Positions 1,512 to 56,996 of a DNA stretch of 64,000 bases are shown one piece after another. The position numbers and the translations under genes were made by a program. A model generated the notes under the pieces. The model was not told where the DNA came from. It made no database searches and saw only the letters and a list, made by a program, of their open reading frames with translations. Position 1 is the stretch's first letter. Each line of letters begins with the position of its first letter. The stretch is from Octopus vulgaris. Lineage: Eukaryota. The stretch covers positions 66,650,001-66,714,000 of the forward strand of contig OX597819.1 of the NCBI GenBank assembly GCA_951406725.2, read 5' to 3'.

Positions 1512-2144
1512 AGCATTTATCTATCTAGGTTCTATCTATCTATCTCTCTGTCTATCTATCTATCTATATATATAACATTCATTTGGCTTGACAGTTCCCA
1601 CTTTCCTTGACTTTGCCTCTAATATCAAAGTATCAGAGAAAGGTTAATATTCGATATATTACGGTCATGGTAAATATATTATTGCGTGAGAATGGTTAAG
1701 GAATTTGGTTCGTCATCCTGTATTCCTCAGTGTATGACATTTCATGGCATCTTCTGCAAGCATGTTAACTCGACTCGCGATTTGCTTATTGAACATTCAG
1801 CCATTTTGCACGTTACGATCATGATGTTAAGCATGGTCATTACTATCGTCAATGTGGTCACAGTTGCCATCATCATCATCATCATCATCATCATTGTCGT
1901 CGTCGTCGCCGTCGCCACTATCATCATCACCACCACCTCTACCACTACCACCATCGTTATCATCATCATCATCATTATTCCCATCATCACTACTAATACC
2001 GCCGACACTACCATCATCATCATCATCATCATCATCATGTCTCTGGTCATGTCAATCACAGGAATAATTTGAGATTTCATGGTTTGTAAGCGACCGACAT
2101 TACAACATTGCCCCTGTCGCAGAGTTTGTCATTCAGATCATTTA

Positions 2145-2250
2145 CTGGAGTAAGGTAGAATGAAATGTCTTGCATCATAACACAACGCACCACACGGTGT
2201 TGGAATCGAAGCTTCTTGACGTCTTAGGTACAACACTCTAACCAACTGAA
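2145..2250 (-). mobile_element. Degenerate SINE fragment (tRNA head plus CORE-like segment)
   Basis: Minus strand reads tcagttggttagagtgttg...ttcgattcc...gcgttgtgttatgatgcaagacatttca, resembling A/B boxes followed by a CORE-like GCAAGACA. A similar fragment lies near 6990-7080. Confidence 0.4.
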
Positions 2251-2855
2251 TTATTAAATCATACAAATGGTTTAACAGCAAGTCGTTTTAAGGACACAAT
2301 CGACGAAAGAGCCCATCATTCAACCATCCATTTGTTGGAATGCTTTGTTTATGATAATGCTCGACGGTATTTTAACATTAAAACCTCTGCAAGAACGATA
2401 AAGCTTCTTAGTTTTCTGTGTGTATTCTCATCTTTCTACGCGCCTTACGATGTTAATTCTCGGTAAATTACTTACATATTAAAGTAAAATTTTGACAAGG
2501 GCAGAAATAAAATACGGATGTATGTTGACAAATCTCGAGTTATATATATGTTTATTTTTCAAAAAATGTGTTATGGATTGTATACATCATGGTATTAATG
2601 TTTCTTTTAGACTGAGCAATATAGACAATGTCCAGTAATTCTTGTAATTTATCTCCTCATTGACTGATAACTATATTGTAATGCAGTTATCTCGCATGAT
2701 GTTGGGAAAAGTTGTTTAACGAGTTACTACAGCAAGAAAAATAAATTTTGTTGCGGTTGTTACTGGAATATCCGACTCAAAATTTGACATTTCACTTTAA
2801 ATAACATCAAAGTTAAAAGCACCGACAACGATTGGGTGTAAGTGGGATGCAAAAA

Positions 2856-2910
<55 letters not shown>

Positions 2911-2911
<1 letters not shown>

Positions 2912-3638
2912 GACCAAAGCCTCCCCACCAGAAATTACCAAAAACATGTAATGAAAAGAAATATAACAAGTAACTGCAGAATATGTGGAGATGGACAAGA
3001 AATAATAAATCATATTATCTCTGGCTGCCCAGTCCTGGTTAAGAAGGAATATATTCACAGACATGACAGAGTTGGAACCTACATACACTGGAAGCTATGC
3101 CAACATTATGGAATAACAACAGAAAAAAGATGGTATAGGCACACACCAGAAAAGGTCAAAGAAAACGAGAAAGCAACCATACGCTGGGATATGACGATAC
3201 ACACAGATAGAGAAAGTAAGGCCAACAGACCAGATATAGTTATCAGAGATCACGAAGAAAAAAAATGCTTTCTAATTGATGTATTAATACCGGCAGATGA
3301 CAACGTGTCTCTAAAAGAAATGGAGAAACTTTCAAAATACAAAGACCTGGAAATAGAGGTAACCAGAATATGGAATCTAAAAACAGAAACAATTCCTATC
3401 ATAGTAGGTGCATTAGGCATGATAAAAAAATATTCAGACAAATACATAACAAAAACACCAGGACTTACAAACACATATAACATGCAGAAAATTGCACTAC
3501 TAGGCACTGCACATATCCTACGCAGACCACTTTCCATACAATAACAATCAGAGCATCACAACAAATCACAGCACATACCCAAGGCACACAGAGCTGCGCT
3601 CGGTAGTGAAGTGAAAGCACGCTATAAAAATAAAACTA

Positions 3639-3641
<3 letters not shown>
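2911..3641 (+). mobile_element. 5'-truncated R4/Dong-type non-LTR retrotransposon inserted in (TAA)n
   Basis: Flanked by (TAA)n on both sides (2859-2910 and 3642-3715). Contains an RLE ORF and a ~100-bp 3' UTR ending directly in TAA repeats. Confidence 0.9.
2951..3544 (+). CDS. C-terminal CCHC zinc knuckle plus restriction-like (PD-D/ExK) endonuclease of a non-LTR retrotransposon
   Basis: CRICG...HIISGC, RHD, WD, NRPDIV, IDV, EKLSKY and IPIIVGALG motifs in an uninterrupted 197-aa frame. The RT is missing because of truncation. Confidence 0.88.
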   Translation: MKRNITSNCRICGDGQEIINHIISGCPVLVKKEYIHRHDRVGTYIHWKLCQHYGITTEKRWYRHTPEKVKENEKATIRWDMTIHTDRESKANRPDIVIRDHEEKKCFLIDVLIPADDNVSLKEMEKLSKYKDLEIEVTRIWNLKTETIPIIVGALGMIKKYSDKYITKTPGLTNTYNMQKIALLGTAHILRRPLSIQ

Positions 3642-3689
<48 letters not shown>

Positions 3690-3715
3690 ATAATAATAAA
3701 AATATAAATAATAAT

Positions 3716-4268
3716 GCCCTGATGCAGTACCGGGCAGTAGCTCTCGTAGCTTCTGATCTTAACTGATTTGAAGTGTTATCATGTACATTGTTTTGTCATG
3801 GTATAATATATGGGCTACAGCAAATATTCTGCTCAATACCACAGACTTGTTTGTCACCTGTTTGACCTTAGGCAGTTCAGCATGTCCCTTAGTGGCTGAC
3901 GATATGTGCATTTCGGATCACAATTAGATGTAGTTGAGGAGCATCAGAGTCATGTGTTGAGAGGGATTCTTTGGGGTTTGAATAAATCACATCTGGAAAC
4001 ATGGGTGTTTCATTCAACATCCTTAAACAACCTTTATTCAGGGACCTTTTGAGTGGGATGGGCTACTCGACCAGAAAAATGTTCTAACTGGGCCCCAACT
4101 GAAAGGTCATGTGCTGTTTATCTTGATATGAGATCACCTTGCCGTGCACACATAGTTGTGATCATGTGCCTAGTGTACATTTATCAGACAGGTAATCATG
4201 ATGGGTATACTGGGCTTCGTATATTTTACTCTAGTGTCACATTGATGGCATGCGCTTTTCCCTCACTG
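3716..4268 (+). mobile_element. Non-coding (TAA)n-targeted repeat, copy 1 (longest)
   Basis: Homologous to 9049-9523, 55337-55846 and 55894-56345. Every copy is bounded by (TAA)n, with a shared 3' end and variable 5' end. Confidence 0.8.
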
Positions 4269-4290
4269 AATGATAATAATAATAATAACG

Positions 4291-4349
<59 letters not shown>

Positions 4350-4795
4350 CATGGGAGTGTCAAAAGAAAAGATCCATGGTGAAGAAGAAGAATCCAGGCA
4401 GGGTTAGACATGCTCTCGAAGGAAATCTCTGTGTTAGACCGAAAAGAGAAAGGGGACCTTAAAAGCGAGCAAAAATACAGAGCGCTGAAAAGGAAGTATA
4501 AAATTGAAAGGAAGGGCCTGAAAGTAGTAGTGGAGGAACTGAAACAGCAGCTAAATGCAGAGAAAGCAAAGATGGTAAGATAAGACCAAACAATGAATGT
4601 TTACCATCAGAATAGTTTATTCAGTCTAGATCGGAAGAGATTCTATAAAGAAATAAATGGATATGTACACATGAAAAGTTGATACCGGATAACATTGAAA
4701 GTCAAAGGTTTTGGAGTGACATCTGGAGCAAAGACAAGGAGCACAAGAAGGATGCTGAATGGTTGCAAGAACTGAAACAAACAGTAGTCCTGGAG
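4350..4795 (+). pseudogene. Fragment of an R4/Dong-type ORF, region upstream of RT
   Basis: Translates through stops as KDPW*RRRIQ...VVEELKQQLNAEKAKMVR*...YHQNSLFSLDRKRFYKEING...FWSDIW...HKKDAEWL, typical of the pre-RT region of this clade. Follows (TAA)n. Confidence 0.7.
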
Positions 4796-6208: not shown

Positions 6209-6225
6209 ATATATATATATATATA

Positions 6226-6796
6226 TACGTGGATGAGTCGAAATGTAATGCTATTTTGTTTATGACAAGTATAATTACCAACAGAAAAAACATGTATCAT
6301 ATACCAAATGAAAGCTGGTCTTCTGTGGATCACATCCTTACTTCTCACCGTAGTCACCGTTTCTCTCAATAGCAATGTTCCACCTCCGAATGAGAGCATG
6401 TATCCTGCTCCGTAAAATTCTGTTGACTGTTCTTTGAGCCACTTCTTCACTACAGTATTTCCCTTCCTTGTCACTGGAATAATTTAGCGCCTTCAGACTA
6501 TCATCTCTTCGGCCCCATGAAAGAGGGTTTGAAGGGCAAACATTATTGCAGCGACGAGGAAGTAAAAACTGCAGTGAAGAAGTGGTTCAAGGAAGAGTCA
6601 ACATTTTTTTCGGGGCAGGGATACATGCTGTCATTCGAAGGTGGAACATTGCTATTGACAGAAACAGTGACTATGCTGAGAAATAAGGATGTGATCCACA
6701 GAAGACCAGAGTCATTTTGATGTATGATACATGTTCTTGTGTTGGTAAATACACCTGTCATAAACAAAATGGCATTACTTTTTGACTCACCCTCAT
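6226..6796. mobile_element. Mariner-derived foldback element made of two inverted right ends
   Basis: About 6226-6478 is the reverse complement of about 6545-6796. The plus strand encodes NLAPSDYHLFGPMKEGLKGKHYCSDEEVKTAVKKWF (mariner YSPDLAPSD region) and a C-terminal RWNIAIDRNSDYAEK*. TA lies at both ends. Confidence 0.85.
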
Positions 6797-6947
6797 ATCT
6801 CTCCTTGTTTCTTTCTGTGTTCCTTTCTGTGGAAGAGCGTAGCCTCGAAACGTTAAAGACTTTTTCAATTCCAAAGCGTTATACTAATACATCTGTTTGT
6901 TTCCTACACCACCTGTCTTAGTCTTTTGTTTTTTTAAAATTTTCCCT
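6797..6947 (+). mobile_element. Penelope-like terminal repeat with variant minimal HHR, family S copy 1
   Basis: CTTT-CTGTGGAA-GAGCGTAGCCTC-GAAA-CGTT-AAAG, then GCGTTATACTAATACATCTG...ACACCACCTGTCTT, ending at (TA)n. Five copies in the window. Confidence 0.65.
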
Positions 6948-7578
6948 ATATATATATATATGCCTGTCACGGGGTTTACTGACTTACAGCATGGTGAACA
7001 ACAGCAATTGGAGATAAAGTGTTTCTCTTAAGAACTCACCCACGACTTGGTGCAGTAATCCAGACCACCTTCTCCCGAACGTGATTGGATCATCGTATTC
7101 AGTATCGTAATAGCTGCTGCTATTGAAACAAATAACTTACGAGCACGATTGGTTCGGTCCTAAGTCAGCATATAGACCTGCATACATTCGTTTTATATTT
7201 TTACATTTTTAAGGTAAATTATCAGGAAAAATTCACACACAGCATTCTGTATTATACTACAACGGTGTTATTTGTTCATAGAAATGAACCAAAGAATGCC
7301 AATACAAGAAATACATGGCGTGGTGAAAGAAAAAGTTGCAAAACTTACATAAAAGGTTATTGTTGTCTGGTGCTTGGCTGTGGACTTTCGATGTTACATG
7401 TTTGCTGACATCATCCGCAGACGGGTTAATTTCCAAGAAATAAAACCAATTGGATTGCAACTGGACCATTTATCATTGCTGCCGGGAGATGTTGAGCAAA
7501 TTATCGTAAAGTCAATCAGTCTTAAATTGAAGACGACCTGCATATATACACTCATACACGCATGCACACGAGCCCAGC

Positions 7579-8905: not shown

Positions 8906-8996
<91 letters not shown>

Positions 8997-8998
8997 TG

Positions 8999-9048
<50 letters not shown>

Positions 9049-9523
9049 GTACATTGTTTTGTCTTGGTATAAATGATGGGCTATAGCAAATATTCTGCTC
9101 AATACCACAGATTTGCTTGTCAGTTGTTTGACCTTAACCAGTTGACCGTGGCTGACGATATGTGCGTCTCTGATCATGAGCAGAGATGGTGGAGAATCAT
9201 AGCCCTGTTTTAAAAGGAATTCTTAGAGGTTTGGATTATTCCCCTTTTGAAACATAGGTGGTTCGTTCAACATCCTAAAAACAATCCTTATTCAGGGACC
9301 TTTTGAGCGCGATGGACTACTCGACCTGAAGAAAAGTCTAACTGGGCCCCATCTGCAAGATCATGTGCTGTTTTACTTGATATGAGATCACCATGTCGCG
9401 CACATATGGTTGTGATGCGTGTGCCTGGTGTACTCTTATCAGACGTCTAGTCATGATGGGTATACTGGGCTTAGTAAATTTTACCTCAGTGTCACTTTGA
9501 TGGCATTTACTGCTCTCTCACTC
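9049..9523 (+). mobile_element. Non-coding (TAA)n-targeted repeat, copy 2
   Basis: Colinear with about 3780-4268; flanked by (TAA)n. Confidence 0.8.
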
Positions 9524-9542
9524 GATAATGATAATAATAATA

Positions 9543-9610
<68 letters not shown>

Positions 9611-11379: not shown

Positions 11380-11670
11380 GACGCACGCACACCTTCGTTT
11401 TGAGATCATGACTACTTTATTATCTCCCCTTTTTCCTAGCTGCCCTGTGTGACCCCTATGTCCGGCATTCGCCATGATAGCTCGCTAGCCAATACATATT
11501 CTTTATTTTCTCTCCTTGTTTCTTCCTGTGTTCTTTTCTGTGGAAGAGCGTAGGCTCGAAATGTTAAATACGTCTTCACTTATCGAACATTAAAGTAATA
11601 CATCTGCTTGTTGTCTACACCACCTGTCTTCGTGATTTGTTTTTATTTTTGTGAATTCTACACGTATCTA
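11380..11670 (+). mobile_element. Penelope-like terminal repeat, family S copy 2 with upstream part
   Basis: CTGTGGAAGAGCGTAGGCTCGAAATGTT at 11538. The upstream segment ACGCACACCTTCGT...TGTGTGACCC...ATGATAG.TCG.TAGCC is shared with 39510-39630. Confidence 0.65.
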
Positions 11671-11953
11671 TATAGGTATTTAGTTACTTCATGCTTATTA
11701 ATATTTTTTCAGTTTATCACTTCCTGTGCTACGTCTTTCTTTATGCCTAAGCGTGCGCACGCGTGTATGTGTATGCATGTAATTACATTTATGTGACCAG
11801 GTGAGACACCGCATATATTTTAAATGTGTCATTAGCTAAAATGTCCTAAGATTTCTACACTTCTATCTCATTTTATTGTCATGAATATTAAACAAAGTTC
11901 CGTCTCCAATATTAACAAAAATGTACACAAACACACACATACATTTATTATAT

Positions 11954-21570: not shown

Positions 21571-22413
21571 TTATTCATATGAGTGAAAGGTGTGTTTTTG
21601 CCAGTGCATGCATCTATAGGATTTCTCGACCATTGTATTTATTAAAGGGACTTTGGCGAACAAAATATGGAAAAGTTCGGAATAACAGACGCCACAAAAT
21701 TTTCTGCCTTTATCAAACGGAAAGGATACAGACAATATGGACCATTCCAGCTTGAAAGTTGTATTACTGTCCTTAAGACGCCAAACTATTTTACTTAGTC
21801 CTGTGCTGTGTTGTTTTCTCTTATCTCGGAAAGTTGAATAATGGTCGGAGATCCTGTGGGCTAATTTAGAAGTAGTTGCCCCAATGTAGAAGACATCGGT
21901 ACCGGAAGAAATTTTGCACTGGTAAATGGAATTTCTAATTTTGGTATTGCTGGATAAGAACTTTAATCTGTTAGGGTTTACCTCCGAGACTAAGACGGAG
22001 TTTTTATTATGATTGGTGTTAATATTATTGCTAGCATTGACCACAATACTATTCATATTATTATCATTACTATCAATTGTACTATCGTCGGTAATTTCCC
22101 TGACTATAGGAATGCTGGGGTTGTTATCATCAATACTACCACTGCTATTATAAATGCTGTCGTTATAACCACTAACACTACCACTGTTAATAATCCGACT
22201 AATATTATTATTAATATTACTATTGTTAATGCCAACGCTGCTATGAATATTGCTATTATCAATACTATTTCTATTATTATTATTATTGTATGTTTGGTTG
22301 GAATTGTTAAGGGCAGTGTCGCTACCTGCGGGTGATGCATCTTGATGCTGACATAAGTTCCTTACATACAATAATAATAATAATAATAGAAATAGTATTG
22401 ATAATAGCAACAT
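21571..22413 (-). CDS. Penelope-type GIY-YIG endonuclease preceded by an Asn/Ile/Ser low-complexity region; no RT
   Basis: SIYQCKI...FYIGAT...HRISDH...TGLSKIVWRLK...WSIL...CGVCYSE...LINT..E...CMH: GIY-YIG motifs with the conserved R, H, E and N plus C-terminal CxxC...CxH. The start codon is uncertain. Confidence 0.75.
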   Translation of the reverse strand: MLLLSILFLLLLLLLYVRNLCQHQDASPAGSDTALNNSNQTYNNNNNRNSIDNSNIHSSVGINNSNINNNISRIINSGSVSGYNDSIYNSSGSIDDNNPSIPIVREITDDSTIDSNDNNMNSIVVNASNNINTNHNKNSVLVSEVNPNRLKFLSSNTKIRNSIYQCKISSGTDVFYIGATTSKLAHRISDHYSTFRDKRKQHSTGLSKIVWRLKDSNTTFKLEWSILSVSFPFDKGRKFCGVCYSELFHILFAKVPLINTMVEKSYRCMHWQKHTFHSYE

Positions 22414-25171: not shown

Positions 25172-25646
<475 letters not shown>

Positions 25647-25842: not shown

Positions 25843-26417
25843 AGTATATATGTGTGTGTGTGTGTACAGAGAGAGAGAAAGAGAAAGAGAGACAAAGAAT
25901 GAGGGAAAGAGAAAAGAAAGACGTGTACGCCTGTATATGTATAGGCATGGGTATGCCTCTCTCTCTCTCTCTATCTATCTATCTTTCTCCCTCTTTTACT
26001 TCCTTCTTCACAACAGCATACCCAAAAAATAAAATACCCACGCTCTCTCTCTCACTCCCTTTCTACCACACACAAACACACACACCTATAACCATGACGT
26101 TAATATAAACTTGCAGTTGAATGCAGAAGACTTCTTTTGAATTCAATAGAATTTCTGAAACTTGACATCTGGAAACCCATTCCAGACCTCTATATATACA
26201 ACATACATCAGAAGAGATTCCAAGATGAAATTTCACCCATTTTCTTAACAATGAATAAAATATAGCAACAACATTTTAATTTCCATGTTTTTTCTTATTC
26301 CCTAATTTTTGTCTTTCAGGTCTTAAAAATTGAATATGATCGATAAATACATCGAAACCGATAATATTTTATTAATATCACTCAATGTAACAAATATGAA
26401 ATACATTTATTTTATAG

Positions 26418-26464
<47 letters not shown>

Positions 26465-26467
<3 letters not shown>

Positions 26468-26965
26468 GTAAAATATATAGGGTAGTGAATATTTAAAAAA
26501 ATTTCACTGCCAGTGGCCTAGCATGTATAAAAGGTCAATAGACAACATATTCTCAATATAAAATAGTGTACATTTAAACAAAAGAGAAAGTACCTTTAAC
26601 ATGTAATTTTACACGCTACAAGAAGCAGTCAAATCGACCAAAACCACATTTAAATGTAATTTCGAAGAGAATAGAAAATAAAAACTTTTACCATGTTATT
26701 TTTTTACGGTTATAACTAGGTTTCAATTCTTTTTAACAAATAAACTAATTTGCTAGGAGAAATTCTCATGAGTAACCGCGTCATAACATTAACATATAAT
26801 TTTGAAATAAATAAGACGTGTCTAATCATTCTATTTTATAGTTTTTCACATTCACTGCGGAAGCGCAGTTACAGTCGGCAGTAAATGAAAAATGCTGAAC
26901 TGACTGATTGTTCTAGCGTGTAAAATTACCTGTTAAATGTAGTTTCTCTTGTGTTTAAATGTACA

Positions 26966-26967
<2 letters not shown>
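26465..26967 (-). mobile_element. HHR-containing non-coding element between (TA)n tracts, with a long internal inverted repeat
   Basis: Inverted repeat 26565-26632 / 26900-26967. Carries the family motif ATGCTAGGCCACTGG...ACCCT on the minus strand near its 3' end, and a decayed HHR. Confidence 0.7.
26707..26778 (-). ncRNA. Decayed type I hammerhead ribozyme
   Basis: Minus strand CGGTTA-CTCATGA-(stem II with TAGCAAAT/ATTTGTTA)-GAAA-CCTAGT-TA-TAACCG. Perfect 6-bp stem I, but core G5>C and a stem III mismatch. Confidence 0.65.
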
Positions 26968-27041
<74 letters not shown>

Positions 27042-27044
<3 letters not shown>

Positions 27045-27665
27045 TGCTTTGGTTTTGTGCTGAGTTTGATTTGAGAACATAATCTTTTTGTGGAGAATGG
27101 CGATTTGACGTCTATATCTAGCATGTTGACTGTCCACTTTTCGCGTTCAGTCCTTAATTGGTATATATAAATATTTTAATCTTCGGATTCTTTTTTAATA
27201 TGCTAGACCACTGGTTTTAATTGACAAATATCAATTTCTACCCTTAATTAATTTTATATAAATAAATATGTTCTCTAACCGATAAATTGACTGCTGCTAA
27301 TTATTAGCTGCATGCTGGTTTTTTCGGGTCTCAACGCGCCAAAGTAAAGGCATTTGAAAGATACATTCGAATGTAATAGGTTGAACTCCATGCACGCGAT
27401 ACTCCGGTATCGTTTTTGCATCTAGTCCAGCAAATTGCATTCATAACGGACCATGCTGATGAATGTTACAGTTATCCTTGCGGATAATAATAACCGAAAC
27501 TGATCGGTACATGGGTAATTATTTTATTTCGTATATTTTCACTTGTTTATTGCTTTGGTTTTGTGCTGAGTTTGATTTGAGAACATAATCTTTTTGTGGA
27601 GAATGGCGATTTGACGTCTATATCTAGCATGTTGACTGTCCACGTTTCGTGTTCAGTCCTTAATT

Positions 27666-27667
<2 letters not shown>
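27042..27667 (+). mobile_element. Retrozyme-like element R1: 506-nt unit as a ~1.2-mer in (TA)n
   Basis: 120-bp direct repeats 27042-27161 and 27548-27667 (2 mismatches), an internal intact HHR, no credible ORF, and (TA)n on both sides. Confidence 0.8.
27451..27514 (+). ncRNA. Type I hammerhead ribozyme, intact core
   Basis: CCATG-CTGATGA-ATGTTA...TTATCC TTGC GGATAA...TAACC-GAAA-CTGATCGG-TA-CATGG. GUA cleavage is predicted after 27509; stem III is near-palindromic. The base of stem II is imperfect. Confidence 0.82.
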
Positions 27668-27738
<71 letters not shown>

Positions 27739-29479
27739 ACATACTGAAACAGAGAAAGAGAAAGAGTGAAACTAAAAATCATCTACGTTTTACAATGCGT
27801 GAGTATTTTTCTTTTGTACCATCATTTGGTTTGAAATAAATCTAATTAGGAAAACCTGAAATATTTTTTTGCCTCAAATCCAACAAGAGCTAAAGTGAAA
27901 AACATAGCATATTGTTATGGTGGTGCACTGTCACCAGCCGTATTTTTATCTTGACCGTCTGACAAAACTCATTTCCATTTTATATGTATTTAGATGTTGC
28001 TTTCAATACAGCATGTTACTTTGTTACTTACCAATGTTTTTGCAAATTTCATATCACCTATGCAGCAATCGTGGTCATTTAATCAAGGTCAAAAATGGCC
28101 ATGGTCAATGAAGGTGTACAAGGATACATTATTCAGACATGCAGTAAACCAAAGTAAAGAGAATCTCCAATTTAAGTGACACCTAATTTTCATCAACTTG
28201 CAATCATGGTTTTAATTCTATCTGTTATCTGCACCAAATTACGATTTAATTAGGAACATTTCCCTTATTCATAGCAATGAAGCTTAAATCACCCAAATCA
28301 ATATAACTAACTACAAGTGAAATAAAAATATAAACAACAGGGATAATATATATTTTTATAATGAGAAAAACATCTTATCAAACAATCTAGTGTGTTTACT
28401 CAATTTTGAATTTTAAGAAACATCTTTCCTTGAACACTTAATTTTAACTTAACTTTGAAAAATAAAGAAGTACATTCTCCTTTTTTTTTTCTATAGTTAG
28501 AAAGAAGGAAATTCATTAATCCTGCATGGTTGGAGTTTGTTATATTTTCATTAGAAATCGCTTATCCAGTTTACGTCTACGAGAAAGCGTGTGGTTTATA
28601 CTATTCAATGATATACAATTTCGAGCAGGGCTAAATTTGTCATTTTCAATTAATAACCACTGCGATGTATAATATTTGAATAATGTTGGTCGTAGTGTAC
28701 ACAAAACAATTTAAATTTTAACATAGAAGTTTGATTGTTATAATATTTGTACGCCAAAAGTTGTTATAAAGGGCAATTCTCTGCGAGTAGAGAACATGAG
28801 TAATTGGTTTGTAATGAATGTTTAGCAAAGCATGACATTTATTACAAAGACGTTTTTCTGCTTACGCGAAAAAAAGATTTTTTGTTTAATAACTTTACTT
28901 TACAAATTGGGAGATTTAGCTCCGTGCTAAAAGTGTCTTCTTTTAGAGAAGTCACTTTCCATGCTTATGATTAAATGTGAGTGCACCTTACCATCGTTGA
29001 AACGCATTCATGCACATTCGTCATATTACCTATATTAGACTTTCAGCACTTTCTATAAAGAACTAGAAACTTCTATTCTCCATGGATGGGAAATGGTTAA
29101 AGGTATTCGAACACTAATTTCACAAAATGTGATTCTAACCAGATTGGTCCCTTATAATGAACATTATGTGATAAATTATGGGTTTATCACTTTTGCTTCC
29201 TTTACTCAATAAAGATGGTACTGCGTGTTTAATAGCACTAAAAATACATAAGCCCTAATGAACATATCAAATATGGTCTTGTCATGACCCTCATCAGTAT
29301 CGTCATTGTCATCATATTTACGTATTAATCATTTTACGCCTTTAAATTATTCCTACTTTATAAGTGCGTAATCTCATTTTGGTAACTTTATTAGTTGTAA
29401 ATTTATTGTTATTACTAATGTACAGTGAAAATAGAGGTGAACTGGCAGGAAAAAAGCAGGCACACGAGTAGTAATATCA

Positions 29480-30309: not shown

Positions 30310-30528
30310 GCTTGGCCCAAAGTGAACTGTCAGTAAATCAAAGCCATCTAAATCCAAGATTTATTTCTGTTTAACAACTGAATGAATTTAAAGAAAGCAT
30401 CGAAATATGAAACATCATGAAAATTGTTCAAGCTGAAATCCTTCTTGTAAACATTTATAATTAGAATAAATAAATCTGTATATTACTTATTGAATATTGA
30501 CTTACTGTCGTGTGACTTTTGGCCAAAA

Positions 30529-30531
<3 letters not shown>
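30307..30531. mobile_element. Tc1/mariner-type MITE, plus an extra TIR copy at 30570-30606
   Basis: Left end CAGGCTTGGCCCAAAGTGAACTGTCAGTAAATCAA is an imperfect inverse of the right end TTGACTTACTGTCGTGTGACTTTTGGCCAAAAGTG. Embedded in (TA)n. Confidence 0.6.
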
Positions 30532-30571
<40 letters not shown>

Positions 30572-30606
30572 TTTTGGCCAAAAGTCACACGACAGTAAGT
30601 CAATAT

Positions 30607-31282
30607 GTCTTGCCCTGCCAATATACACATATATTAGAATTTTCTCTGACTTCTCAGATTTTTGTATGCTAGACTACTGGTTTTAAATTGATATTAAAAT
30701 TAATATTAATTTATCTCCCTCATTATTTAAATATTGAAATAAATATGTTCTCCAGTAGTAAGCACTAACCGCAGTGAATTATTTACTGCAGTCCTTCGCT
30801 TCAGGAATTTCTTAGCGCGCCAGAACCAAGACATTTGAAATTTTATCCCTAATGTAATCGGTAAAACTAAACACGTGTCTGTCTTGGCACAGAAAGCTGG
30901 GGTTAGTTTTTTCAGATTGCATTTACACTGAACGAATGCACTGATGAAGCCACGGACATTTGAATTATGTAAGTAATTCTTTTGTTAAAGGCCGAAACCG
31001 AGGTATGCATTTAATTCTGTTTTTTTTATATAAATGTTTCATCTGTCCTGCCCGCCAAATTTGGTTCTGGTGTTCGCTGAATTTTTCCTCTAGAGAATTT
31101 CCTTTGTAGTTTGATCGTTGATGATCTATTTCTGGCATACGGCCGACTACCTAGCAGTCTTGCCCTGCCAATATACACATATATTAGAATTTTCTCTGGC
31201 TTCTCAGATTTTTTGTATGCTTGACTACTGGTTTTAAATTGATATTAAAATTAATATTAATTTATCTCCCTCATTATTTAAA

Positions 31283-31286
<4 letters not shown>
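30607..31286 (+). mobile_element. Retrozyme-like element R2: 550-nt unit as a ~1.2-mer
   Basis: Direct repeats 30607-30735 and 31157-31286, an internal intact HHR, blocks colinear with R1, and a 3' end at (TA)n. Confidence 0.8.
30935..31011 (+). ncRNA. Type I hammerhead ribozyme, intact core
   Basis: AATGCA-CTGATGA-AGCC...GAATTAT GTAA GTAATTC...GGCC-GAAA-CC GA GG-TA-TGCATT. Perfect 6-bp stem I; GUA cleavage predicted after 31005. Confidence 0.85.
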
Positions 31287-31334
<48 letters not shown>

Positions 31335-39290: not shown

Positions 39291-39504
39291 ATAAAAACTC
39301 TAATACACTGTGTCTATATACATGCTATCGTCCTATGAATCAAGATTATATGCACCAAACCTTCCCTTATATATGTGTTTATGTGTTTGTTTGTGTGTGT
39401 ATATATACATATACACATATACATACATATGAATAACACATACTATAAGCACGCGTCTCGAAGCAAACTCACAGAAATTTCTATCACATACACACTCTCT
39501 TATA

Positions 39505-39760
39505 CACACACGCACCTTCGTGTTGGGGGTCATATTTACTTTGTTATATACCCCACTTCTTCCCTCTCTTGTGTGACCCTTCTGTCTGGCAGTCGCAATG
39601 ATAGATCGTTAGCCACTACACACATTTTTTTTTCACTCCTTGTTTTTTCTGTTTCCCCTTCTGTAGAAGAGCGTAGGCTCGAAACGTAAAAGACTTCTAT
39701 TCCTGAGCGTTATACTAATGCATCTGTTTGTTTTGTACACCACCCGTCTTCGTCTCCCCA
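39505..39760 (+). mobile_element. Penelope-like terminal repeat, family S copy 3
   Basis: CTGTAGAAGAGCGTAGGCTCGAAACGTAAAAG at 39661; ends at (TA)n. Confidence 0.65.
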
Positions 39761-40099
39761 TATATATATATATATTAATAAAAAGAATTCCAACCTTGTC
39801 TGATTTTCACGTTTTATTTACAATCTTATAATGATATATTATAAGATAATATATATATATATATATATATATGCATGCTAATACAAAACCCAGATTAAAC
39901 TCCTCATTCCTTTCACTACCAAACCAAGAGTTTTACTGTGGTCTCTATCTTTAGCACTTAATTCGCATTACCCGCCACTCATTGGGTCTTCTAGATACTA
40001 ATATCCTTTACATCTCTCTATCTATCTACCAATATATATATATATATAACATATAGGATGGATGTCCACGTACTGGTCATCCCCATTTATGCATGTAGT

Positions 40100-40222
40100 A
40101 TAATTTTTTTGGAATCTTCAGATTATAAATACTCTAGACCACTGGTTTTAAATTGATATTAATCACAATAGTATTCAATTTTTCACCCTTATTATTTTAA
40201 ACTGAAATTTTAAAATACACAT
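40100..40222 (+). mobile_element. Fragment of the R1/R2 retrozyme-like family
   Basis: AATCTTCAGATT...CTAGACCACTGGTTTTAAATTGATATTAA...TTCACCCTTATTATTTTAA matches 27178-27255 and 30652-30735. Confidence 0.65.
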
Positions 40223-40227
40223 GCTTT

Positions 40228-40394
40228 AGTTTCTCTCCCTTGTTTCTTTGTGTCTTCCTTTCTGTGGAAGAGCCTAGGCTCGAACGTTAAAGACTTTCCC
40301 GCTTCCCGAGCGTTAAACTAATACATCTGTTTGTGTCTATACCACCTGTCTTCCTGTCTTCGTATTTTGTTCATTTTTTGTGAATTCTTCCCTA
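40228..40394 (+). mobile_element. Penelope-like terminal repeat, family S copy 4
   Basis: CTGTGGAAGAGCCTAGGCTCGAACGTTAAAG at 40262; ends at (TA)n. Confidence 0.65.
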
Positions 40395-40793
40395 TATATA
40401 TGTATATATATATATATATATATAAAGTCCAAGTGTTTGACGCATTAAGAATTTTTGCTGTTATATGTAGAAGAACGTGCGAACACGTAAAAGCTTATTC
40501 GGTATATCACAAATGTATACAGTGTAGCGGAAAGTGAAAGCACTGAAACATTGTATAGATATGGCCTTAGAAACTTTGGTTCTGGCTTGACACTTATATT
40601 AAGAAATGTATCCGTGATTTACAAAAAACCAATATGAAATATATTAACCAGATTTATTTTCCACGTATGATCTAATGCTCTGCCATTCCCGTCTTTCACG
40701 CTCTCACTCCCCTCGTTGCCCCTTCTTTCTCTCTCTCTCTCTATCTCTTACTCTTTATTTTCATCTATCCATCTCTTCCATTCACACTTCCAA

Positions 40794-51477: not shown

Positions 51478-51660
51478 GATCACTACGCACATGTTTTTCT
51501 TTCCTTGTTTCTCTCCTTGGTTTTTCTGTAACCCCTCTGTAGAAGAGCGTAGGCCCGAAACGTAAAAGAATTTTTCTATTGCTGAGCGTTATACTAATAC
51601 ATCAGTTTGTTTTGTACACCACCTGTCTTCGTCTTTTGTTTTTTTCGTAAACTCTACTCA
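51478..51660 (+). mobile_element. Penelope-like terminal repeat, family S copy 5
   Basis: CTGTAGAAGAGCGTAGGCCCGAAACGTAAAAG at 51537; flanked by (TA)n. Confidence 0.65.
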
Positions 51661-51769
51661 TATATATATATATATATATATATACAACACACACACACAT
51701 ATATATGTATGTATAAATGTATATTTACAACACAAATATATACATATATTTATACATATGTAAACGCAA

Positions 51770-54425
51770 ATTATCTATTTGGATGTCTTTTTGTGTCAAT
51801 TTGCCGTCTACACCCGTTAACGGATTTCCTTGAAACTTTGCAGACATGTTAAAGTAAAATCCAGTTTGTTACTAGGCTCGTTGGTGTTTAATAAAAATCT
51901 ATAATTGGATGGCTAGGGCCTCTAGACTGGGTCCACATACATGACCAATATATTTTTCTTTAACAACCAAAGGAAATAACCTATTCATTTTCCTAGCGAA
52001 AGGAAATAACCCATACATTTTCCTTTGATGGCCCTAAACACTGCCAAGCTAAAATTTAATAGTTAAGGGATGCAAACTGACGACTGGGGGATCGTGTCCT
52101 ATAATTCATTGCTCTCCAAATCATTGCAGGTCCATGTTAATGTTGAGTCATGCAACTCTGTAAAAAGTATTAAATATGTATGTAAATACATCAATAAGGG
52201 CGCAAATATGGCGCTATTTTGGACATGAACAAGAGGGCAGGCTGATGAAATTCAGCAATATAAGTTGAGCAGATATATTTCCTCTAATGAGGGCTTCGAA
52301 ATCCACAAGCGGCAACCAACAGTGGTGAATCTATCTATACATCTTGAAAATGGCCAGCGTGAAAACTTCACACAACGCTCGAAACGTAGTTCTGAATCTA
52401 TGAGAATTCACTTTAACAGCTTTCTTCAAATTATGCTAATGTGATCTTTTGCCCGAACACTGTTGTATGTTGAGGATCCTGTGTATTCTACCTGGACACA
52501 CAGTAGATGGGACAGACGCAAGCAAGGAGCTTGGGAAGAACATGCAGTCTTCAGAAGCGGGGGGGGGGGCATCTGGCGAGTGTACACTCTGCACTCTCAT
52601 CAATAGAAAAGATTTTTTTCTGCATCTCCTGCTGCACCTGTCAAACCTTTGAAGGCACAATGGGCAAGTCTGCAAGAAACCTACAGAGAAGCCTGCGCTA
52701 AACATGGACTGCTTGAGGACGATGCTCACTATGACCAAACACTGGAGGAGGCAGCAGTCAGCAGAGCACCAAGTCAACTGTGCCAGCTATTTTCTATCAT
52801 GTTGATGACATGTGACTTAGGTGAAACTCTAAAGCATTGGGCAACCAACAAAACAGGCGTTGGCAGAGGATATGCTACAAAGGATTCAAGGGCGATCCTT
52901 AGCGGAAATTTCCACATTCAATAACGCCCCTTACAATGAAGCATTACTTGACCTGGACACACTTTTGTAAGCTATGGGAGGTCAAGGCATTGCCACATTT
53001 GGTCTGCCTCAACCGGAGCAGGCAACAAACAATCTCGCAATTCAGTACCTGTGAGAAATCAGCTGTGACATAGAGGAAATGACGGCGTATATAGCTGATT
53101 ATGAAAACAAACTGATGCAGGGCAAATTGTACATTATTCCGAGCATTGAAAGTGGAAGAGGAGGTCTTTTCTTTTGGATGCACCAGGTTGAACTGGCAAG
53201 ACATTTTTCATCAACCTACTTCTGGCTAAAATGCACCAAATGAAAGACATTGACATAGCATTGGCGTCAAGTGGAATATTTGAAACTCTGCGAAGTGGCG
53301 GCTACACAGCTCATTCCTGTCTCAAACTTCTTTTGGACCTGTCGAAGGAGGAGAAGGCAAACTGCAAGATCAGTCGTGATTCTATAAAAGGCAAACCTCT
53401 GGGTGAATGCAGGTTGATAATCTGGGATGAAGAGACAATGAGCCATAAGGTTCCCTTTGAAGTTCTTGATATGGCCCTTCAGGATCTGAGACAGAACACC
53501 AGCCTCATGGGAGGTGCCAGAGTCTTGCTTGCAGGAGACTTTACTTTAGAAAAACCCTTCCCGTGGTTCCAAGGGAGACAACAGCTGATGAGGTAAATGC
53601 CATACATAATAGAAATGGCAGAATATCCGTGCCATTTTAGCTCCAAAGAATGCGGCAGTTGATGATTTGAACATTCAATTTGTGGAACAGTTGCCAGGTG
53701 AGCGTCACATCTACAATTCCAGTGACACTGTACTCAAAATCAATTAAGCTGTGAATTTTCCAGTTAAGTTCTTGAAAAGTGTAACACCACCAGGCCTACC
53801 ACATCACAACTTGCACCTCAAGATTGCGGTACCAGTTTTGCTGCTTCGAAACCTCGGTTCACCAAAGTTTTGCAATGGCACACGACTTATAATTAAATAA
53901 GATGATGCTAACAGTCTTGGAGATAACAATTTTGACTGCTAAAGCAAGCGCTGAGCCAGTATCTATTCCTAGAACTCGAATATGCCTTTCCCTTGAATAT
54001 GCCATTCCAGTACAAGCGCCCGCAATTCCCGTAGAAACTGTGGTTTGCAATGAACGTTAACAAAGTCGAGGGGAAGTCCTTGGATGTCGTAGGTCTGAAC
54101 CTTGCGGAATCAGTTTTCTAACATACCCAACTTTATGTCGGATGCTGAAGAGTCAGCAATCCTAATCATTTGTTTATTTATGCCCCACAAGGAAAGATAA
54201 AAAATGTTGCTCATCAAGAAGCTCTGAGAATTTAATAAGATTCACCAAATCATCAGGTATTTATTATTTAACTGTAATATTTGTAAGTGATGTAAATGTT
54301 ATTTTATTTCTAAATCTGTATACACATTTATTTGTATGTCTACTGTGAAACTAAATGCCAGTCTGTTTCTACATGCATTGTCAATCTGTTTCAAGACTAA
54401 CGACCCTAAGGGTTGTAATCTCTAG
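51770..54425 (+). mobile_element. Internally deleted, decayed Helitron
   Basis: Contains a RepHel pseudogene. Candidate 3' end is the hairpin ACGACCC-TAA-GGGTTGT (54400-54416) followed by CTAG (54422-54425). Boundaries are uncertain. Confidence 0.8.
52091..54230 (+). pseudogene. Helitron RepHel (Rep motif 3 plus PIF1 helicase) with many stops and frameshifts
   Basis: IVSYNSLLSK...HVNVESCNSVKSIKYVCKYINKG (YxxKY), DEIQQY..SRYISSNE, DAPG*TGKTF (Walker A), ASSGI...GGYTAHS, LIIWDE, GGARVLLAGDF, LLRNL, CNGTRL and QLYVGC*RV. Confidence 0.92.
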
Positions 54426-54680: not shown

Positions 54681-55261
54681 GGGATTTCCTAAAAACAAGA
54701 TCCTACATGACACAGTTCAGTTTTCTCTTTAAATGCACAAAAACTGTTTTATGGGCTACATACTTTTACCCTGATATTATTTATATACTCAATACTTCTT
54801 TCTATTTTATATCTTGCATCTCCTTCTATGGAACCGACTCTATTTGTTATGTGATAAGGTATAGGTTCTTATTCCTTGGTATATTAGAGCTTTTTCAGCT
54901 ATGCGTGGTTTCTGTAATATCGAGTATTCATCATGTATGGTATATGTTGAACGAGCCATCTTGCTTAAAATCATTAGGTGCATATTACGTAATGTGTGTA
55001 CCCTGTATGAAGATTGTTCTGTATGAGCTCTCCTATTGAATACATTAATTGGATGCAAGATGTAGACTGTTCCTAGCAAAGCTATTTTAAACAACATTTA
55101 GTTTTGTGAGACGTTGGTATGACAACAATGTTCCCTATTTACTGTCATTTCGTTATATGTAACCCTCGGCACTTTATGTTTGCCTCAGTATTGTCTCTTA
55201 CATCCGTTGCCCCGAGGGTAAAGAAAAGCAATAATTATTGCTGTTGTTGTTGTTGTTGTTG

Positions 55262-55335
<74 letters not shown>

Positions 55336-55336
55336 T

Positions 55337-55846
55337 GGTGAAAGAGAGAGAGTAGTGCATGCCATCAAAATGACACAGGAGTAAAATATACGAAGCCAGT
55401 ATACCCATCATGACGACCCGTCTGATAAGGATACACTATGCACATGCATCACAACCATATGTGAGCGACATGGCGATCTCATATCAAGACAAACAGCGCA
55501 AAGCCTTGCAGGTGGGGCCCAGTTAGAATTTTCTTTTGGTCGAGTAGTCCATCCCGCCCAAAAGGTCCCTGAATAAGGATTGTTTAATGATGTTCAACGA
55601 AACATCCACGTTTCCAAAGGTAAATTATCCAAACCTCTAAGAATTCCTGTCAACACACGGCTATGATGCTCCCCCACTACTTCTGCTCGCGGTCAGATAT
55701 GCACATATCGTCAGCCACTAAGGGACATGGTCAACTGGTTAAGGGTCAAACAATTGACAAGCAAATCTGTGGTATTGATCAGAATATTTGCTGTAGCCCA
55801 TCTTTTCTACCAAGACAAAACTATATAGATGATAACAAATTACAAA
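55337..55846 (-). mobile_element. Non-coding (TAA)n-targeted repeat, copy 3
   Basis: Reverse complement of about 3765-4268, in (TTA)n. Confidence 0.8.
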
Positions 55847-55892
<46 letters not shown>

Positions 55893-55893
55893 T

Positions 55894-56341
55894 AGTGAAA
55901 GAGAGAGAGTAGTGCATGCCATCAAAATGACACAGGAGTAAAATATTCGAAGCCAGTATACCCATCATGACGACCCGTCTGATAAGGATACACTATGCAC
56001 ATGCATCACAACCATATGTGCGCGACATGACGATCTCATATCAAGATAAACAGCGCAAAGCCTTGCAGGTGGGGCCCAGTTAGAATTTTCTTTTGGTCGA
56101 GTAGCCCATCCCGCTCAAAAGGTCCTTGAATAAGGATTGTTTAAGGATGTTGAACGAAACATTCACGTTTCCAAAGGTAAATTATACAAACCTCTAAGAA
56201 TTCCTGTCAACACACGGCTATGATGCTCCCCCACTACTTCTGCTCGAGGTCAGATATGCACATATCGTCAGCCACTAAGTGACATCGTCAACTTGTTAAG
56301 GGTCAAACAACTGACAAGCAAATCTGTGATATTGATCAGAA

Positions 56342-56345
<4 letters not shown>
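55894..56345 (-). mobile_element. Non-coding (TAA)n-targeted repeat, copy 4 (tandem with copy 3)
   Basis: Highly similar to copy 3, shorter at its 5' end, and separated from it by (TTA)n. Confidence 0.8.
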
Positions 56346-56414
<69 letters not shown>

Positions 56415-56996
56415 GATATATTTGTTATTTTCGTCTGTGTTGTCATTGTCCTTCGAGATAGCAAATGTGCCTGTCTAGGCCCACTTGTGAAACTACACGA
56501 AGGAAAAGTTTTAATGGAGGACATTTAAAAAAAATCAGAAATACAAATTTAATTAGTTCCCTCAATTCTTCCCATTCCGGTTAAAAACAAACCTTTATTT
56601 TGTAAAGATATTTTTTGTTGCTTCTTTGTTACTCGTAAACAAGCAAAATGGCAGCCAGCACTTTATAACCGCCTCCACAAAAAGAAAACCAATGAAAAAT
56701 AAATAAAAGTTTTTTTTAAATAAATGAAATCAAACCCAGTTTAGCAGACACATGACAGAAGTATATATATATTTATAAAAAAGAATCAATTGAGTTTCTT
56801 GCGGAGCACATTTATCTTTATAATATTAAATAACGATTTTTCAGTGGAAAAAAGAAACCAAAAATGACAACACAACAAATGCCATTGTGGACGAGGGAAA
56901 CGATTCAAATAATGATAAAAGTGGAAAAACGGCGACATGAGGATACACGCAACACATATATATATATATATATACATAAATACATGCATACATTCA

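Follow-up and report, generated by a model that had tools for sequence, protein, structure and literature searches.

The window analysed here is a 64,000-nt stretch of Octopus vulgaris contig OX597819.1 (positions 66,650,001 to 66,714,000, forward strand), composed of microsatellite-rich DNA that is non-coding in appearance. It contains two related insertions, R1 and R2, and a remnant of a third family, R3:

26968..27044: (TA)n/(TG)n run, left flank of R1
27045..27668, plus strand: R1 insertion, consisting of a 506-nt unit (27045-27550) and, after it, a partial repeat that stops at the putative short start site S
27668..27734: (TA)n target run, right flank of R1 and its 3' junction
30607..31287, plus strand: R2 insertion, consisting of a 550-nt unit (30607-31156) and, after it, a partial repeat that stops at site L in (TA)n
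40085..40215, plus strand: decayed 3' (tail) fragment of family R3
27451..27514, plus strand: type I hammerhead motif of R1, with stem I at 27451-55/27510-14 and the core at 27456 and 27496

The units of R1 and R2 have a GC content of 0.34-0.36, and the longest ATG-initiated ORF in the units of R1-R5 spans 30-64 aa. Their ends join (TA)n directly, without an LTR, and the units close head to tail with no RT-EN ORF, which is the feature expected between the terminal repeats of an autonomous Penelope-like element (PLE). Each unit carries one type I hammerhead motif on the plus strand; its predicted cut in R1 lies after 27509, and the core in R2 is found at 30941 and 30994 (plus strand). The 5' end of R1 is truncated at a helix designated P1 below. 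We identify R1 and R2 as copies, in the genome, of non-autonomous non-LTR retrozyme units of about 500-550 nt that bear a hammerhead and contain no ORF.

Several other repeats share the window. A repeated element between (TAA)n runs (2912-3544, 3624-4352, 8906-9607 and 55220-56429), which we take to be of the R4/Dong type, has a reading frame resembling the end of a restriction-like-endonuclease LINE (weak zf-RVT match). A frame at 21571-22413 on the minus strand ends in a segment that looks GIY-YIG-like by eye, for which Pfam gave no match, and a PIF1 helicase fragment at 53192-53596 (plus strand; E 1e-24) is likely a Helitron remnant. Another dispersed repeat is present at 25400-25430, 6798-6961, 11491-11673, 39485-39755, 40214-40407 and 51505-51684, and its copy at 25400 contains a minimal hammerhead-like core of the PLE kind. 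Finally, a self-inverted segment of about 570 nt (6225-6798, 82% identity) adjoins a (TA)n run.

Relatives of the two units were collected within the same genome assembly (2.8 Gb, 227 contigs), which holds at least six related, dispersed retrozyme families (R1-R6). First-look candidates numbered approximately 2000-3000 per query for R1-R5 and 298 for R6, figures that do not represent copy numbers. The 200 loci sampled yielded 109 full, non-identical units for R1-R5 (35, 28, 10, 20 and 16, respectively), which are 88-95% identical within a family and 57-80% identical between families; the distant family R6 contributed 22 units, 20 after two duplicates were dropped. Tandem arms of R1-R5 reach 5.3 units, and the units of one arm are almost identical, as illustrated by 14 mismatches in 5640 sites over 5.3 units. 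A scan of metagenomes using a conserved motif of the tail returned no matches. No description of these families was found in the accessible literature; repeat databases such as Repbase and Dfam may already contain them. A seventh variant (L314:1766-2522, minus strand) sits within the TA run that borders a truncated Neptune-like copy on its 5' side, so that the two share a target; this locus had been considered as a PLE-retrozyme chimera, a reading that was discarded as the TA run separates the two.

After removal of edge-cut and duplicate arms, 280 of the 321 arms in the 200 loci were retained, and 241 of them end at one of two fixed sites or their homologues (119 at S, 122 at L), the other 39 ending elsewhere. 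A TA run is present at the junction of 200/241 arms ending at S or L, compared with 8/39 of the others. In R1 these sites are as follows:

27161..27174, plus strand: putative short RT start site S, AU-rich and TA-like, within the loop closed by helix P5
27253..27269, plus strand: putative long RT start site L, AU-rich and TA-like, just before the 3' strand of helix P3

The distance between homologous S and L sites is 95, 112, 120, 111 and 96 nt in R1-R5 and about 104 nt in R6. Insertions exhibit partial tandems, 5' truncation with scattered 5' ends, and inversion. Among 86 head-to-head inverted pairs, both ends could be classed in 59, comprising 54 L+S, 2 L+L and 3 S+S (p=2e-11), and the remaining 27 had an unclassed end. 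Family R6 behaves likewise, its inverted insertions having two kinds of 3' end and a tail at just one side. When the two arms of one locus are compared with a view to a possible origin in one molecule, their distance falls below the median distance to other loci in 44/53 cases and usually not below that to the nearest locus. By analogy with what is described for PLEs, S and L ends combined with L+S inversions amount to the Penelope-like 'tail' signature, that of RT starting at two internal points, the tail being longer here. Other TA-like 8-mers of the unit are unused as ends, so fold position, and not sequence alone, is likely to select S and L. In the predicted fold both sites are framed by conserved nested helices and are modestly more unpaired than the average (0.42-0.63 versus 0.37-0.41). 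The left flank of R2 (30494-30606) contains an inverted duplication with arms of about 40 nt around a (TA)n run, which looks like the outcome of the target end folding back before cDNA joining. Such duplications are clear in just 2/106 non-inverted arms and are not general, being detected in 5/106 arms and in 9/240 random cases.

The fold in question was first proposed in the first-pass annotation, which described 27042-27350 as a nested, rod-like structure of five helices with compensatory changes between R1 and R2. All of its 10 named segments in R1 (27044-27347) and 8 in R2 (30664-30829 and 31061-31140) lie at the expected places, and the region folds better than its shuffles (-71.9 kcal/mol, z -3.21, 0/100 shuffles as good). 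Circular monomers, folded as that annotation had advised, gave the same outcome (z -4.03 for R1 and -4.52 for R2, with 0/60 shuffles as good in each case). Their minus strands score alike (z -4.24 and -3.70, respectively), so the z-score does not fix the strand. Four of the five helices (P1, P2, P3 and P5) hold, having a mean pair probability of 0.76-0.96 over 16 R1 copies; they are recovered in R1-R5 by separate per-family RNAalifold folds with RIBOSUM scoring and have equivalents in R6. The fifth, P4 (27092-27107/27225-27242), fails: with its register set by hand, its mean probability is 0.00 in 5/5 families tested, just 5-6 of 14 positions pair in R2-R4, and in the window copy part of it is present in the MFE structure and absent from the centroid. 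It is replaced by a helix of 4-5 bp, P4', together with local hairpins. The compensatory changes claimed between R1 and R2 are real in P1 and P2, while P3 and P5 are almost invariant among R1-R5. The term 'rod-like' proved wrong, as the folds of the six families contain 8-9 hairpin loops and 3-5 multiloops, with 60-67% of positions paired.

A single architecture is predicted in all six families: a hammerhead arm, a nested arm of the form P0-P1-P2-[P8]-P3-[P4', P7]-P5-[P6], and a long hairpin, P9. It is based on mean pair probabilities from as many as 16 copies of each family (74 of the 109 units) and on separate RIBOSUM RNAalifold folds in six families. In R1 the predicted elements, all on the plus strand, are the following:

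27044-27052/27339-27347: nested arm P1, covarying
27057-27064/27330-27337: nested arm P2, covarying
27073-27081/27267-27275: nested arm P3
27090-27093/27208-27211: helix P4' of the inner domain (27090..27211)
27117-27127/27197-27207: P5 of the inner domain, near-invariant
27128-27152: hairpin P6 of the inner domain
27213..27243: hairpin P7, within the tail that separates S from L
27279..27325: hairpin P8, covarying
27369..27442: long hairpin P9, covarying

R6 keeps this topology with a different sequence, and MAFFT misaligned it around P5. With default parameters RNAalifold was inconsistent on the decayed families, only 6-54 pairs being common between families and R6 giving near-zero energy. 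When 11 natural stretches were folded automatically, 26 pairs were retained, 6 of them with two-sided change; these covered P2, P5 and portions of P7 and P8, and P1 and P3 were missed.

Selection on this RNA was assessed by covariation, with pairs taken from R1 only, with a sequence-only alignment and 2000 permutations. R2 keeps 99 of 137 R1 pairs (null 74.2 +- 4.1), and 28 of the 137 are changed on both sides yet still pair (null 10.3 +- 2.6). In R3, R4 and R5, two-sided changes kept at R1 pairs number 23, 20 and 13 against null values of 6.3, 6.5 and 2.6 (p at the permutation floor). The families are related, and these tests are accordingly non-independent; of the 20 directed comparisons between families, 6 failed to reach significance for two-sided changes, and in every one of these the source was R3 or R4. 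Two-sided changes are kept in 36/50 cases in ensemble stems versus 296/774 in decoy stems. The signal resides mostly in the hammerhead and the local hairpins: held-out two-sided changes in non-hammerhead local hairpins amount to 17 vs 6.9, 13 vs 3.8, 11 vs 3.6 and 6 vs 1.3 (p=0.0003, the permutation floor), and those in hammerhead stems across families to 8 vs 3.1, 7 vs 4.0, 6 vs 2.6 and 6 vs 2.1. Long-range pairs are kept in 37/49 cases against a null of 31.9 (p=0.015), and in 41/52 (p=0.075), 37/50 (p=0.087) and 46/51 (p=0.004) cases in the other comparisons; two-sided changes in the long-range class alone are not significant under the sequence-only alignment (3 vs 1.5, 3 vs 1.0, 3 vs 1.3 and 1 vs 0.1). 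When registers were set by hand across the six families, at least five of them showed pairing at 34 of 42 long-range positions (15 with compensatory change, 14 invariant), a count that is fitted to the structure and whose P3 changes come mostly from R6, where P3 is not alignable by sequence.

Taken by class, RNA structure outside the ribozyme is supported as being under selection, with the evidence for covariation in long-range helices alone being modest. The suggestion of viroid-like RNA selection beyond the ribozyme is thus borne out as regards selection, given the strong held-out covariation in non-hammerhead hairpins and the retention of long-range helices, and fails as regards the comparison with a viroid rod. 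The level at which selection acts is indicated by private substitutions, which occur at 595/34756 paired and 313/18736 unpaired sites (p=0.75) and, at paired sites, break the pair in 424/595 cases; of the pairs that differ between families, 41-62% are kept. Since private mutations ignore pairing and between-family changes often keep it, selection acts on the copied lineage and not on inserted genomic copies. This neutral decay of inserted copies argues against a host function for typical copies.

Candidate helper proteins are encoded in the same genome. A GIY-YIG search produced at least 148 matches (150 scored of 6136 candidates), many of them in open frames of 781 aa that combine RVT_1, a C-x4-C-x2-C linker and, at the C-terminus, a GIY-YIG domain; judged from sequence, i.e., by the description of Craig et al. 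(10.1101/2021.04.23.441226), these would be Neptune- or Nematis-type elements. Intact RT + GIY-YIG elements terminate in (TA)n at either of two positions separated by 40 nt. In three autonomous families, whose ORF1 is about 50% identical, both sites are enclosed by a predicted helix that has a GCAU/AUGC core and closes at the ORF1 start codon, and a second, varying helix is predicted to surround the L site. Autonomous Neptune-like copies (L234:1205-1315, L323-L334, L310-L322) have an upstream ORF1 of 437-479 aa, and their predicted two-helix domain, which encloses both RT start sites and the ORF1 AUG, shows apparent covariation across three Neptune-like families. The retrozyme helix P5 also has a GCAU/AUGC core and is near-invariant in six families, but it encloses S only; this likeness is short and may have arisen by chance. 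It is conceivable, though doubtful, that the nested arm mimics in structure, without sequence homology, the domain in which RT starts in Neptune-like elements. In that case a protein dimer would be loaded onto a single circular RNA at two sites about 100 nt apart, each priming one strand of cut (TA)n. That idea derives from the GCAU/AUGC-cored helix lying 5' of the first AU-rich start site in both kinds of element, the flanking pairs of which covary in the autonomous families.

Our preferred reading, to which we assign a probability of roughly 0.8, is that these retrozymes, with their conserved, predicted branched RNA fold, are copied into (TA)n by a Penelope-like RT/GIY-YIG protein from two fixed internal sites. 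The unit anatomy, the six families, their covariation, the two 3' ends, the (TA)n junctions, the L+S inversions, the tandem units and the read-through of the ribozyme site are all shown by the analysis. Under the proposed sequence of events, units would be transcribed, cleaved by the hammerhead and ligated into circles, after which the nested arm P3/P4'/P5/P6/P7 would bind the helper protein and present the two AU-rich sites. The endonuclease would cut both (TA)n strands, and each 3' end would prime at one site, aided by TA-like microhomology. Tandem units may result from running round the circle or from re-use of the template, and inverted forms from head-to-head joining of two cDNAs. The fold would be selected only in RNA lineages that get copied, with inserts decaying neutrally. 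Against this reading, the tail measures 95-120 nt, compared with 40 nt for the candidate helpers, whose helices are also arranged differently around the two start sites; the PLE terminal repeats examined share no sequence homology with the retrozyme profiles; Rfam does not recognise the hammerhead; S and L are only modestly unpaired relative to the average; and default RNAalifold folds were inconsistent on decayed families.

The hammerhead core and covarying stems I and II are present in six families, and the core pattern is intact in 32/35, 25/28, 1/10, 10/20, 12/16 and 6/20 units of R1-R6, respectively; in the window copies, stem II has a non-canonical pair at its base. This base alternates between G-C, A/C and U/U among families and subfamilies (R1, R4, R5 and R6 hammerheads), and loop III is often palindromic, which, together with the stem II switching, may hint at dimer-dependent cleavage. 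Rfam reported nothing at gathering threshold in the window, and at E<=5 the interval 26000-29000 gave only microsatellite or chance matches. Of 24 sequencing-run rows, 20 contain part of the stretch (the kind of run being guessed), and none is on record as RNA. The four runs compared with it consist of contigs, which carry no information on RNA ends, strand or level. Two contigs of one of them (X1) end exactly at 27510, the predicted cut, but a 31-mer branch at a T insertion near 27535-27540 would produce this, and it was rejected as evidence.

A linear, uncleaved multimeric or read-through template could also have given rise to the insertions, with circles being rare or irrelevant, tandems arising from template jumping or tandem sources, and the fold still serving RT loading; we consider this possible and distinctly less probable than our preferred reading. 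The ribozyme site is read through in 183 of the 185 arms that reach it, a figure biased by the choice of loci, and in 16/19 arms of tail-selected loci. The 5' ends are not robustly enriched at the cut site (6/280 within 5 nt; 2/185 stop there; 3/19 within 8 nt in tail-selected loci). In the accessible text of Frangieh et al. (PMC11167929) ribozyme cleavage is unnecessary for insertion in vitro, and in that of Li et al. 2026 (10.64898/2026.07.22.740005) eight of nine Xenopus retrozymes failed to cleave. Against this, the hammerhead stems covary across families, which places the ribozyme fold under selection; helix P0-P2 joins the post-cut segment to the pre-ribozyme segment, as suits a cut-to-cut monomer; and circles have been demonstrated for other animal retrozymes (Cervera and de la Pena 2020, PMC7229834).

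A question of origin, compatible with copying by a Penelope-like protein, is whether the unit is a detached pseudo-LTR of an unsampled autonomous PLE family from which the fold was inherited, a derivation that we regard as tentative. As far as the accessible text of 10.64898/2026.07.22.740005 reports, for 24 of the 57 retrozyme families of Xenopus there is a match to known elements, 21/22 of these being PLEs, at their termini, and just 148 of the 6136 GIY-YIG candidates in the octopus were among those listed. The PLE loci examined, on the other hand, have no homology to the units, which as tandems are self-closing without an ORF: retrozyme profiles matched no PLE terminal repeats in 42 loci and in 70 loci, the only hits being neighbouring retrozyme insertions. 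No hammerhead core was seen in the one autonomous copy checked.

Much of the covariation might instead be a DNA-level by-product, generated by template-switch correction of local palindromes and not by RNA selection. The strongest two-sided signal indeed falls in local hairpins, two-sided changes of the long-range class do not reach significance by themselves, and about 40-60% of changed pairs break between families. This explanation is nonetheless improbable, given that P1, P2 and P4' show compensatory changes across 120-300 nt, that R6 keeps the topology with a different sequence, that hammerhead stem I covaries, and that homologous hairpins occupy the same places in six families. Least probable of all is a viroid-like replicon whose rod is selected for RNA-to-RNA rolling-circle replication and occasionally reverse-transcribed: stable folding of both strands, covariation round the whole unit and the hammerhead would suit it, but the fold is branched, the minus strands of R1 and R2 contain no hammerhead core, the insertion ends are of retroelement type, and at varied pairs the plus strand has more G-U than A-C in five families, weakly (19:12, 22:10, 11:5, 18:8 and 24:11).

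Viroids and viroid-like circles resemble the units described here in being small, non-coding, hammerhead-bearing and strongly self-paired; the retrozyme differs from them in being branched, genome-encoded and retrotransposed, with a ribozyme of single polarity. Viroids feature an unbranched rod and ribozymes on both strands, neither of which is found in R1 or R2. The resemblance to animal non-LTR retrozymes, as far as these are covered in the accessible text of PMC7229834 and 10.64898/2026.07.22.740005, is closer and includes a type I hammerhead in each low-GC tandem unit, the lack of an ORF and LTR, thousands of dispersed copies, a strongly self-paired predicted circle and a proposed PLE helper. 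The testable features of this class were found here, and by analogy with other animals, in which cleavage and circles have been demonstrated, the octopus units would presumably also be cleaved and circularised. Unit length is 500-550 nt here versus 170-400 nt in PMC7229834 and falls within the range of 51-972 nt in 10.64898/2026.07.22.740005. In both sources the PLE link of retrozymes derives from co-occurrence and terminal-repeat homology, whereas here it derives from insertion junctions. In the accessible literature nothing was found on cross-family covariation of whole retrozyme units or on tail or L+S inversion signatures in a retrozyme, and the accessible text of these two papers likewise mentions neither two fixed RT starts nor (TA)n targeting.

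Among EN+ PLEs, insertions have been reported to form partial tandems with an inverted 5' copy and a 30-40-bp tail on one end, with a bias for microsatellites that takes the form of (TA)n in Naiads (Craig et al., 10.1101/2021.04.23.441226, accessible text). According to Frangieh et al. (PMC11167929, accessible text), the tail corresponds to the sequence lying between two internal points at which RT starts, and both DNA strands are cut and extended. EN+ PLEs such as Neptune and Naiad (insertion of (TA)n type) and Poseidon (the PAc mechanism) share with the octopus retrozymes partial tandems, 5' truncation, an inverted 5' copy, a tail confined to one end, RT initiation at two internal sites and an AT-rich or microsatellite target. 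They differ in that the retrozyme has no ORF and a tail of 95-120 nt versus 30-40 nt. Furthermore, the retrozyme start sites resemble the (TA)n target, whereas the PAc start site is non-homologous to the cut DNA; TA-like start sites are used by this genome's autonomous elements as well, unlike PAc.

These results bear on how retrozymes are mobilised in animals and on which RNA element is recognised by a Penelope-like RT. In the octopus, the insertion junctions of a protein-free element carry the Penelope two-start signature. Six diverged families provide a covariation-backed model of an RNA domain that frames both start sites, and intact candidate helpers reside in the same genome; an in vitro test of cis-recognition and of the use of circular templates is thus straightforward.
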